DNA of 64,000 nt, from assembly GCA_052143835.1 (NCBI GenBank), contig JBKQRV010000142.1, positions 8,995 through 72,994 of the forward strand. Direction: 5' to 3'. The stretch is from Alphaproteobacteria bacterium (lineage in GTDB: Bacteria > Pseudomonadota > Alphaproteobacteria > JACZXZ01). A model generated the notes under the pieces. It was not told the origin of the DNA, did not search any database, and saw nothing but the letters and a program-made list of their open reading frames with translations. This document shows, in pieces, positions 32,203-35,200 of the stretch. Position 1 is the stretch's first letter, and every line of letters starts with the position of its first letter. A program made the position numbers and the translations under genes.

Positions 32203-35200
32203 ATGACCCCCTACGCCGAGCTGCAGGTGACGAGCAACTTCAGCTTCCTCCGCGGCGCCTCGCATCCGGAGGAGCTGGTGGAGCGCGCCGCCGAGCTCGG
32301 CTACGGAGCGCTTGCCGTGACGGACCGCAATTCGCTCGCGGGTATCGTGCGCGCGCACGCGGCGGCGCGCAAGACGGGCCTGCGCCTCGTCGTCGGCGCG
32401 CGTCTCGATCTCGAGGACGGGCCGAGCCTCCTTGCCTATCCCGGCGACCGCGCTGCCTACGCCCGGCTCTCGACCCTGCTCACGCGCGGCAAGCGCCGGG
32501 CCAAGAAGGGCGAGTGCCGCCTGACGCTCGCCGACCTCCTCGCCCACGCCGAGGGGAAGCTCGTCGTGGCGCTGCCGCCGGAAGACTTCGGCGAGGATTT
32601 CGAGCGCGCGCTCGACAAGCTCAAGTCCACACTCGGCGACCGCCTCTATCTCGCCGCCCACCATCTCTATCGCGGCGACGACGGCGCGCGCATCCAGCGC
32701 TTGGCCGAGCTCGCCGGGCGCCTCCGCATCTCCCTCGTCGCGACCAACGACGTGCACGCGCATGCCCCGGCGCGGCGCGCGCTCCAGGACGTGCTCACCT
32801 GCATCCGCGAAAAATGCACGATCGACGAGGCGGGCTTTCGTCTTTTTGCCAATGCGGAGCGCCATCTCAAATCGCCCGACGAGATGGCGCGCCTCTTCCG
32901 CCACCATGCGCACGCGGTCCTGCGCACGCTGGAGATCGTCGAGCGCACGCATTTCTCCCTCGACGAGCTGCGTTACGAATACCCCGTCGATCCCTGCCCC
33001 GACGGTCTTACGCCGCAGGACTACCTCGCGCGCGCGAGCTGGGCGGGGGCGGCCGAGCGCTATCCCTCGGGCATTCCCGACAAGGTGCGGGCGCAGCTCG
33101 AGCACGAGTTGGCACTCATCGGCGAGCTCGGCTACGCGCCCTATTTCCTCACCGTCTACGACATCGTGCGCTTCGCGCGCCGAGAGGGCATCCTCTGCCA
33201 GGGGCGCGGCTCCGCCGCCAATTCAGCGGTGTGCTATTGCCTCGGCATCACCGCGGTCGACCCCAGCCGGCTCGACCTCCTCTTCGAGCGCTTCGTGAGC
33301 GCCGAGCGCAACGAGCCCCCCGACATCGACGTCGACTTCGAGCACGAGCGGCGCGAGGAGGTCATCCAGTACGTCTACGCGAAGTATGGCCGCGAGCGCG
33401 CCGGCATCGCGGCGACCGTGATCTGCTACCGTGCCAAGAGTGCCGTGCGCGAGGTCGGCAAGGCGATGGGCCTCTCCCTCGACGTGGTGGGTGCCCTTGC
33501 CGACACCGTGTGGGGCTGGAGCGAGGACGGCATCGACCCGAAGCGCGTGCGCGAGCTCGGTCTCGACCCCGCCGAGGAGCGCCTCAGGACGACGCTCCGG
33601 CTCGCAGCCGCGCTCGTCGGCTTCCCGCGCCATCTCTCCCAGCACGTGGGAGGCTTCGTCATCACCCGGAGCCCGCTTTCCGAGGTGGTGCCGATCGAGA
33701 ACGCCGCCATGCCCGAGCGCACCATGATCGAGTGGGACAAGGACGACCTCGACGCGCTCGGCATGCTCAAGATCGACGTGCTGGCGCTCGGCATGCTCAC
33801 TTGCATCAGCAAGAGCTTCGCCCTCCTCTCGCGGCACAAGGGCGAGAGCTTGAGCCTGGCAACCGTGCCGGCCGAGGAGCCGGCCGTCTACGACATGCTG
33901 TGCCGGGCGGACTCGATCGGCGTCTTCCAGGTCGAGAGCCGCGCCCAGATGAGCTTCCTGCCCCGCATGAAGCCCCGCGACTTCTACGATCTCGTGGTCG
34001 AGGTCGCGATCGTGCGGCCGGGCCCGATCCAGGGCGACATGGTCCATCCCTACTTGCGCCGCCGCAACGGCGAGGAGAAGGTCGATTATCCCTCGGACGA
34101 GCTCCGCCAGGTGCTCGCCAAGACGCTCGGCGTGCCGCTCTTCCAGGAGCAGGCGATGAAGATCGCGATCGTGGCCGCGGGCTTCACGCCGTCCGAAGCC
34201 GACCAGCTGCGCCGCGCCATGGCGACCTTCCGCAAGACCGGCAAGATCAACAGCTTCCGCGTCAAGATGGTGGAGGGCATGATCGCGCGCGGCTATGCGC
34301 GCGACTTCGCCGAACGCTGCTTCCACCAGATCGAGGGCTTCGGCGAGTACGGCTTCCCCGAGAGCCACGCGGCGAGCTTCGCGCTTCTCGTCTATGTCTC
34401 CGCCTGGCTCAAGTGCCGCCACCCCGAAATCTTCGCCGCGGCCCTCCTCAACAGCCAGCCCATGGGCTTCTATGCGCCGGCCCAGATCGTGCGCGACGCG
34501 CGCGAGCACGGAGTCGAGGTGCGCCCCCCGGACGTGAACCACAGCCTGTGGGACTGTACGCTGGAGGAGATCGGGCCTGTCGGCGAAAAGCAAATTTCGG
34601 CAGGCCGAGCATCACCCCCACCCCAACCCTCCCCCCTCAAGGGGGAGGGGGAAGTTAGCGAGCATGCCGACGCTCCCCCTCCCCCCTTGAGGGGGAGGGT
34701 TAGGGAGGGGGGTAACCTACAGGCACTCGCCCTCCGCCTCGGCTTCCGCCAAGTCAAAGGCCTCAGGGAGGCCGACATCGCGCGTCTCGTCGCCCGGCGC
34801 GAGGGCGGCTATGGCGATGCCGCAGCACTAAAGCGGCGCGCGCGCCTGGGCCCCGCGGCGCTCGAGCGCCTGGCAGAGGCCGATGCCATGGGCTCGCTCG
34901 GGCTCGACCGGCGCGCAGCACTCTGGGCCGTGCAGGCGCTCGACGAGGCGCCGCTTCCCCTCTTCGCCGCGGCCGCGCTGCGCACGCTCGCGCCCGAGCC
35001 GGAGGTGACCTTGCCGCCGGCGGCCCTCGGCGAGGAGGTGGCCGCGGATTACGCGACGCTCAGGCTCTCGCTCAAGACCCATCCCCTGGCGCTCCTGCGC
35101 GAGCGTCTGGCGCGGGACGGCGTTACCCCCCACGCCGAGCTCGCGACGACGGCCGACGGCAAGCGGGTCACGGTCGCGGGCCTGGTGCTCGTGCGCCAGC

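Follow-up and report, generated by a model that had tools for sequence, protein, structure and literature searches.

Short palindromic repeats carried in frame by bacterial genes have been described before, and the closest known cases are repetitive extragenic palindromic (REP) sequences. The parts considered here of the study by Di Nocera, De Gregorio and Rocco (2013; PMC3733652) already report REPs inside replication and repair genes including dnaE2 (O. terrae Oter_4053, residues 934-971; S. wittichii Swit_1119, residues 166-246), as well as a CGTC-4 REP at residues 853-861 of the 1181 encoded by R. conorii dnaE (supplementary file 4); according to these authors, intragenic REPs lengthen the protein by 20-30 or more residues, presumably located in loops, and they speculate on hypermutability of REP-bearing replication and repair genes. 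In this work, we analyzed a 64,000-nucleotide (nt) stretch of an alphaproteobacterial genome (assembly GCA_052143835.1, contig JBKQRV010000142.1, positions 8,995 to 72,994; hereafter the window), in which a GC-rich double hairpin lies at 34611-34715, within the coding sequence of DnaE2 (ImuC), an error-prone C-family DNA polymerase. We consider it quite probable that this segment arose by in-frame insertion of the core of a dispersed, non-autonomous palindromic repeat into a tolerant loop of the DnaE2 HHH_6 (helix-hairpin-helix) domain. The insertion is a further case of an already known kind of event; what is added to earlier work is the concentration of inserts in a single loop, their allelic diversity at the strain level, and a widespread, apparently unnamed unit with G-quadruplex tails.

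The window element shares with the intragenic REPs of PMC3733652 the use of short palindromic repeats, often arranged as head-to-head dimers, and the in-frame location in dnaE2. As described in the covered parts of that paper, a GTAG- or CGTC-tagged REP carries its tetranucleotide unpaired at the end of an 8-9-bp stem that opens with A-T pairs, followed by a 4-5-nt loop and a short CCA-like tail, whereas the window unit has a pure G/C stem (CCCTCCCCC/GGGGGAGGG), without leading A-T pairs and adjoining a 12-nt C-rich tail; membership in these tagged REPs was therefore rejected. A CGTCA string occurs 12 nt from the stem only in the relatives L001 and L002 (L and P numbers are our handles for DNA stretches and proteins), and the window has CATCA. 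The GGGGWSAS motif given there for TIRYT-flanking repeats fits relatives of the unit that we term type B (GGGGAGAG) and not the type-A unit of the window (GGGGAGGG). The dnaE2 sites covered in the supplement lie elsewhere in the protein, and neither a hot spot at the HHH_6 loop nor strain alleles are described in the parts of the paper covered; judging by a rough offset from E. coli residue 829, the R. conorii dnaE site may correspond to the beta-hairpin loop in which the DnaE2 inserts concentrate.

Rickettsia palindromic elements (RPEs) are selfish palindromes that occur in frame in unrelated housekeeping genes, are translated, and have been judged to be accommodated by the fold of the encoded protein (Ogata et al., 2000, 2002; covered parts of PMC10969869). 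The shared behavior, an in-frame palindrome in a conserved gene at a tolerated position, is a likeness and not membership: RPEs are presented there as families of ~100-150 bp in reduced Rickettsia genomes, whereas the family studied here is extremely GC-rich, has a unit of ~40 nt, is mostly intergenic and occurs in many taxa. Homology to RPE-1 to RPE-10 is unlikely given the composition here (72% GC). REPINs, in turn, are REP doublets that form hairpins and are mobilized by REP-associated tyrosine transposases (RAYTs) (Bertels and Rainey, 2011; PMC3116915, PMC3337134), and have in common with the dnaE2 element two inverted palindromic units, a short spacer, a single long hairpin, and a non-coding, non-autonomous and strain-variable nature. 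In contrast to the extragenic location of REPINs, the dnaE2 copy is intragenic, and its copy number is low in the DNA covered; furthermore, REPIN populations are described as vertically inherited and lineage-specific (PMC3116915, PMC3337134), whereas the dnaE2 unit is common to distant taxa.

The palindromic doublet and the DnaE2 loop

The host gene and the parts of the element, in window coordinates, are the following.

32203-35487, plus strand: dnaE2 (imuC), error-prone C-family DNA polymerase and host of the insertion, recognized by NF004225 and by the PHP, DNA_pol3_alpha, finger, HHH_6 and OB Pfam domains
34567-34728, plus strand: variable DnaE2 loop (residues 789-842), bounded by the beta strands CTLE and LALR and placed by alignment, AlphaFold and Pfam
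34595-34614, plus strand: left extension TTTCGGCAGGCCGAGCATCA, which aligns with the left ends of two homologous copies, the intergenic one of L002 and that of L001
34615-34626, plus strand: C-rich tail of unit 1, CCCCCACCCCAA, identified from the consensus tail in other genomes and a G-quadruplex regular expression
34627-34649, plus strand: hairpin 1, 9-bp stem CCCTCCCCC/GGGGGAGGG with loop CTCAA, from pattern and hairpin scans
34650-34676, plus strand: spacer separating the two units, the fastest-changing part (8 substitutions relative to L209)
34677-34699, plus strand: hairpin 2, stem CCCTCCCCC/GGGGGAGGG with loop CTTGA, inverted copy of hairpin 1, from the same scans
34700-34713, plus strand: G-rich tail of unit 2, TTAGGGAGGGGGGT, from inverted-repeat, tail and G-quadruplex scans

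The 1094-residue DnaE2 matches NF004225 with 1481 bits (cutoff 939) over residues 2-1094 and is thus full-length above the curated cutoff. The palindrome is translated within it as SPPPQPSPLKGEGEVSEHADAPPPPLRGRVREGG (wider context ...ASPPPQPSPLKGEGEVSEHADAPPPPLRGRVREGG...), with no frameshift, in agreement with the preliminary description of this DNA. The sequence and coordinates given there for the two hairpins were also reproduced, and the hairpins are inverted copies of each other; the pair of 25-mers presented as reverse complements proved near-perfect, since their C6/G5 runs are shifted by one base. Matches to the pattern CCCTCCCCC-N5-GGGGGAGGG were found at 34627-34649 and 34677-34699, with an expectation of 0 from 100 shuffles, and no further copy was detected in the 64-kb window by searching for the pattern with as many as 3 mismatches, by scanning for perfect hairpins or with an nhmmer profile built from 85 units.

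Each asymmetric unit consists of a C-rich tail followed by a 9-bp G/C hairpin, and two such units, facing each other across a spacer of 23-27 nt, form the anatomy of a REP doublet (REPIN). Together with their flanks, the hairpins make up a ~100-nt imperfect palindrome inside dnaE2 (34614-34713), whose arms, 34614-34654 and 34673-34713, pair over 41 nt at 78% or over 38 nt at 84%. A single long hairpin, of the kind formed by an inverted REPIN doublet, is predicted for the segment as single-stranded DNA, with a folding energy of -42.5 kcal/mol that none of 200 shuffles attained (z = -7.0); the corresponding RNA reaches -84 kcal/mol. The C-rich tail plus the left arm of hairpin 1 constitute a G-quadruplex motif on the minus strand (34615-34636), and the right arm of hairpin 2 plus the G-rich tail constitute another on the plus strand (34691-34712); these are two of only four G-quadruplex motifs in the window.

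Comparison with orthologues established that the segment is an insertion. We measured the stretch between the invariant WDCTLE and ALRLGFRQ in 120 DnaE2 orthologues (63-100% identical by BLASTP), and the loop spans 54 amino acids (aa) in the window vs 7-10 aa in ~70 of the 120; the nearest insert-free orthologue whose DNA was read, L126 (78% identity), has 24 nt at this point, encoding the 8 aa PADTPQHP. Similarly, of 80 metagenomic dnaE2 genes (52-66% identity) sampled independently of these orthologues, 58 have a short loop (2-10 aa) and the others an expanded one, and the loop is in frame in all 80. The segment is therefore lineage-specific, most orthologues being short, and it adds ~46 residues (~140 nt), more than the ~35 aa first estimated for it.

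Its position also differs from the one originally proposed, in which it would link the polymerase core to the C-terminal region. The match to PF14579 (HHH_6) is split by the insert, with its 90 profile positions stretched across residues 770-905, and the alignment with E. coli Pol III alpha is interrupted exactly at the insert site. In the AlphaFold model (mean predicted local distance difference test score, pLDDT, of 81), residues 794-838 score 28-47 and are flanked by confident strands at 786-789 and 842-845. Given the Pfam position and this pLDDT pattern between confident strands, the insert is predicted to be a disordered excursion at a beta-hairpin tip within the HHH_6 domain, and not an inter-domain linker. 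The element would be translated as a disordered, Pro/Gly-rich excursion of ~45 residues because its C/G runs lack stop codons in this frame and its length keeps the frame.

The repeat family and its mobility

The unit belongs to a dispersed repeat family. A bare-hairpin scan, covering one genome per species, matched at least 120 stretches, from Proteobacteria as well as from other phyla. Among the matches listed, the isolates comprise Bradyrhizobium, Methylobacterium, Microvirga, Sphingomonas, Novosphingobium, Rhodobacter, Luteimonas and Thiofaba, and the occurrences in other phyla all come from metagenome bins; in the same set, a one-sided C-rich tail, which formed no part of the search pattern, accompanies 85 of 136 hairpins in unrelated genomes, and a crude open-frame test found the hairpins depleted from long open frames (42%, vs 78% of random positions). 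The resulting consensus is asymmetric, CCCCCaCCCc-RR-CCCTCCCCC-N4-6-GGGGGAGGG, with CCCCCACCCC as the C-tail, and on the G strand it reads GGGGGAGGG-YY-GGGGTGGGGG, a G-quadruplex motif of the canonical type with four tracts. Inverted doublets with the architecture of the window (C-tail, hairpin, spacer, hairpin, G-tail) were found in the unrelated stretches L016, L013, L110 and L005. Furthermore, Rhizobium and Sinorhizobium replicons gave matches at 74-78% identity over 86-88% of the query with no gene annotated beneath them, and one of these copies is flanked by an ABC permease gene and a PotD/PotF gene. An Rfam scan of 31.9-35.6 kb returned no family at gathering score, generic microRNA-precursor hairpins reaching at most 40 bits vs 70; literature searches with raw sequence strings found no description or name for this bacterial motif, and nothing usable was found in the literature on rhizobial RIME elements.

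These data bear on the notion of an ancestral linker that is palindromic by chance, or of a palindrome made by local template switching and not copied from a dispersed element, which we regard as highly improbable. The empty site of L126 reads CACCCCAACACCCC, resembling the C-tail, and L004 (82% identity) carries the same doublet type at the loop, compatible with vertical descent in the clade. Such an origin is at odds with the short loop of most orthologues, with 100-150 nt of homology, including non-palindromic flanks, to intergenic copies in a sister strain and in rhizobia, and with the presence of the same unit and tail in many unrelated genomes.

The sister strain in question is L002, whose dnaE2 is 97% identical to that of the window outside the loop, and which has the same doublet upstream of imuA as well. 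The empty site, CCTAG/CGA, is present in four sister sequences including the window, and the filled L002 site has CTAG(C) on both sides; this intergenic locus thus displays a presence/absence polymorphism with a short target duplication. Homology between the L002 intergenic copy and the dnaE2 copies continues for ~20-30 nt past the palindrome on each side, which suggests a full element of ~150-170 nt, the window copy being truncated on the right. In these respects the family resembles MITEs (miniature transposable elements with inverted repeats), which are also shorter than 200 nt, have inverted ends and no coding capacity of their own, and can fuse in frame with host open reading frames. However, target duplication and presence/absence were observed for the L002 intergenic copy and not for the dnaE2 copy, and the dnaE2 element is one imperfect palindrome of modular hairpins, not unique DNA between terminal repeats.

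The L002 locus is itself composite. The palindromic insertion measures 420 nt and lies ~70 nt upstream of two GAAC-N7-GAAC motifs, and hairpin 2 of its doublet is interrupted by an insert of ~235 nt (3197-3430 of L002) with inverted ends of its own (TTGATGCAC...GTGCATCAA), internal palindromes and CCCTTGAGGGGGAG repeated on either side.

An unrelated lineage, L138 (61% identity), has the same doublet in the same dnaE2 loop and in the same frame (SPPPQPSPS...PLEGEGWGGG), and a second doublet copy inside imuB (3620-3830). In this stretch, imuB is split into frames of 169 and 459 aa at a G8 run with a -1 frame, and loss of one G restores a single frame; the split is either a sequencing error or a real frameshift. 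The preliminary description had suggested a palindromic mobile or repeat unit inserted in frame, with a search for other copies as a check, and this is supported by the short-loop orthologues, by strain heterogeneity, and by the copies found in rhizobial intergenic DNA, upstream of imuA in L002, in imuB and dnaE2 of L138 and in the at least 120 stretches of the scan.

Recurrent filling and allele turnover of the loop

The loop is a hot spot for insertion. Inserts of at least 12 aa occur there in 38 of the 120 orthologues, vs 1-4 at any other site, and in-frame palindromic inserts from several families occupy it in ~30% of 200 DnaE2 genes, with lengths of 16 to 93 aa. These include type B relatives of the unit (CCCCCTCACCC...CCCTCTCCCCC-N4-GGGGGAGAGGG...GGGTGAGGGGG) and other palindrome families whose loop inserts fold with z-scores of -5 to -10; further families look like CGTC-type REPs, judging by their peptide signatures. 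The unit has six significant matches in the 766 kb surrounding 80 dnaE2 genes, all of them in imuB-dnaE2: three in the loop, which represents 0.46% of the bases, and three in imuB or just upstream of dnaE2. A DNA hairpin at the empty site that attracts palindromes was ruled out, as insert-free sites fold no better than control windows (59 dnaE2 genes, -0.151 vs -0.162 kcal/mol per nt, p = 0.82), and flank-to-flank pairing was found in only 13 of these 59 genes. Since empty sites are not unusually structured, the first insertion is better explained by tolerance at the protein level.

The loop also varies among strains. At least five loop alleles were found among genes that are 97-99.7% identical elsewhere, and the five alleles are all in frame. 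Outside the loop, L001, L002 and L003 are 97% identical to the window (94-95% at third codon positions), and inside it identity falls to 78% for L001 and ~53% for both L002 and L003; the loops of these last two carry type B, with further nested palindromes in L003. The closest gene, that of L209, has 9 differences from the window in ~3100 positions outside the loop (99.7% identical), and its loop shows 12 substitutions, a spacer identical to that of L001 and, nested where hairpin 2 adjoins the G-tail, a hairpin of 28 nt. In the L002 intergenic copy, the mirror position is taken by the reverse complement of this 28-mer. L209 and L002, neighboring contigs of one assembly, carry different loop alleles, which suggests co-existing strains and bears out the length heterogeneity for which a check had been proposed. 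The nested hairpins suggest that resident palindromes attract further ones.

The 28-nt hairpin (ATCGGCCGC-N10-GCGGCCGAT; L209 7494-7521, L002 3100-3127) behaves as a separate module that nests at the junction of hairpin and tail, and similar small GC hairpins lie at the hairpin/tail junction in the unrelated stretches L052, L062, L096, L120 and L122. In L125, a type-B palindrome at 7346-7512 is not a whole number of codons long, and DnaE2 is called as a truncated protein of 838 aa (P0019), which may reflect a pseudogene or else an error in a homopolymer.

Errors are frequent in GC-rich hairpins and homopolymers, and for several related contigs the contig names in the assembly hint at long-read data. 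Nevertheless, in-frame doublets lie at the same codons in independent assemblies (the window, L001, L004 and L209 as DNA, and P0003 at the protein level only), which speaks against the assembly artefact that had been named as a reason to discard the element; we give an assembly or sequencing origin almost no credence.

The preliminary description also offered a slippage-prone tract modulating expression of the mutagenic polymerase, that is, a contingency (phase-variable) switch in which slippage of the C6/G5-6 runs shifts the frame and turns the polymerase on or off. The out-of-frame dnaE2 of L125 and the G8 run of the L138 imuB, repairable by a single G loss, are of the kind expected from such a switch; however, both frameshifts fall within homopolymers, in metagenome assemblies, and sequencing errors may account for them. 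Runs within the element do not exceed 6 nt, 19 runs of at least 6 nt exist elsewhere in the window, and the five alleles of the 97-99.7% clade as well as the 80 metagenomic loops are in frame. Membership among contingency loci, which have long variable homopolymers, was rejected on these run lengths and in-frame alleles, and a phase-variable role appears very unlikely.

Taken together, these observations agree best with entry of a dispersed repeat into a tolerant loop. The element would have entered the codons at the beta-hairpin tip of the HHH_6 domain of this SOS polymerase, a permissive landing site that selection may leave open and that may have been filled independently in many proteobacterial lineages by several palindrome families. 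In the species-level clade of the window, the loop is currently being remodeled: hairpins have been inserted in nested fashion, elements have been replaced or partially deleted, and conversion-like patches are seen. Our best guess for the movement is hairpin-dependent single-strand transposition or template switching, in which existing palindromes may attract further ones. The protein most likely tolerates rather than needs the insert, considering its disorder, variability and frame preservation.

Several points weigh against this explanation. No target duplication is resolvable at the dnaE2 insertion site, and no transposase could be tied to the family: in ~1.9 Mb of the DNA covered, the only RAYT homologue (L069) is flanked by a different REP, although this tblastn search with two queries for RAYT/IS200 proteins is a weak test, as its E. 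coli RayT query missed Pfam Y1_Tnp at E <= 1e-3. High copy number in this genome, REPINs having tens to hundreds of copies per genome, is not supported by the DNA covered, with one doublet in the 64-kb window and only the L002 intergenic copy elsewhere in ~100 kb of sister-strain DNA, and some of the non-proteobacterial occurrences could be binning errors. Moreover, neutrality for the protein is deduced from disorder, variability and frame, and the recurrence at the loop together with the enrichment in imuB-dnaE2 could reflect targeting or a function beyond tolerance.

In L069, the RAYT-like tyrosine transposase gene (2860-3713) is 49% identical to the E. coli RayT query and is flanked by its own REP doublets (GTGCGCAAAATCGCCC), which are unrelated to the dnaE2 family.

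A function beyond tolerance would mean that the insert has been put to use, its loop or its DNA/RNA structure altering DnaE2 activity, partner binding or expression, with recurrence in SOS mutagenesis genes being selected, along the lines of the hypermutability speculated on by Di Nocera et al. Besides the single-loop hot spot and the enrichment of the unit in imuB-dnaE2, this would fit the location within a DNA-binding HHH_6 domain, the share of the tails among the G-quadruplex motifs of the window (two of four), the -84 kcal/mol hairpin in the mRNA, and the statement, in the covered parts of PMC3733652, that the REP-tagged genes of a genome are often limited to those for replication and repair. 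Nonetheless, the loop inserts come from unrelated sequence families and range from 16 to 93 aa, near-identical strains have very different alleles, most DnaE2 proteins lack an insert, the segment is predicted to be disordered, and what is conserved is the DNA palindrome and not a peptide motif; co-option is accordingly rated as decidedly unlikely.

Targeting, in which the SOS cassette, and above all the HHH_6 loop, is an actively preferred target of hairpin-forming mobile palindromes, is likewise improbable in our assessment. It would provide a mechanistic link between palindromes and translesion or gap-filling synthesis, either through insertion while the cassette is induced and single-stranded or through a loop, hairpin or G-quadruplex that tunes mutasome output; in that case, a mutator polymerase would possess a loop that is hypervariable among strains, and propagation of the repeat would be tied to DNA-damage tolerance.

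Insertion of a dispersed repeat into a tolerant loop, for its part, offers a natural example of selfish palindromic DNA adding disordered segments to an enzyme of essential fold while the fold stays intact. A DnaE2 loop that takes almost any in-frame insert of 16-93 residues may be useful for tagging and engineering of ImuC, and the loop could serve as a fine-scale strain marker, as it distinguishes strains whose genes are otherwise 99.7% identical. For annotation, it matters that gene calls of dnaE2 and imuB are lengthened, and in some cases split, by palindromic inserts.

The SOS cassette and neighboring palindromes

The genes and motifs accompanying dnaE2 in the window are the following.

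29669-29698, plus strand: two tandem GAAC-N7-GAAC motifs just upstream of imuA, read from the sequence
29717-30493, plus strand: imuA, first gene of the cassette, recognized by NF033429 (ImuA_translesion, E = 5e-26, 91.6 bits) and by synteny in relatives
30456-31949, plus strand: imuB, Y-family polymerase-like accessory protein, with weak matches to the DNA polymerase IV family
31975-32177, no strand assigned: unrelated palindromic repeat of ~200 nt filling the imuB-dnaE2 spacer, with 27-nt arms that are 96% complementary

The genes imuA and imuB lie directly upstream of dnaE2, and the order imuA-imuB-dnaE2 is the same in relatives. The imuA score of 91.6 bits is under the curated 150-bit cutoff of NF033429; the start of imuB was taken from 497-aa gene calls in relatives, whose syntenic genes match PF00817/DUF6504. 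The tandem motifs fit the alphaproteobacterial LexA (SOS) box consensus, and the operon is probably SOS-regulated, as far as these LexA-box-like motifs indicate.

The repeat in the imuB-dnaE2 spacer has the arms CACCACGGAGACACGGAGGACACGGAG/CTCCGTGTCTTCCGTGTCTCCGTGGTG and a perfect 11-bp hairpin at its center (32047-32071), and a second copy of its family lies 24 kb upstream, at 7468-7635; the imuB-dnaE2 region holds two of the three strongest long inverted repeats of the window. Relatives at 78-86% identity have a FitA-like RHH/PIN (vapBC-type) toxin-antitoxin pair between imuB and dnaE2 (L004 9355-10004, L125 4355-5004 and L126 2283-3004; window equivalent 31950-32200), and the window and its closest relatives have the palindromic repeat in place of this pair. 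Within DnaE2 itself, Pro/Gly/Glu-rich inserts were also seen in a few orthologues at two sites in the N-terminal PHP domain, following core positions 72 and 125-129 (P0062, P0064 and P0085 at one site, P0056 and P0120 at the other), and P0028 contains an internal duplication of 275 aa.

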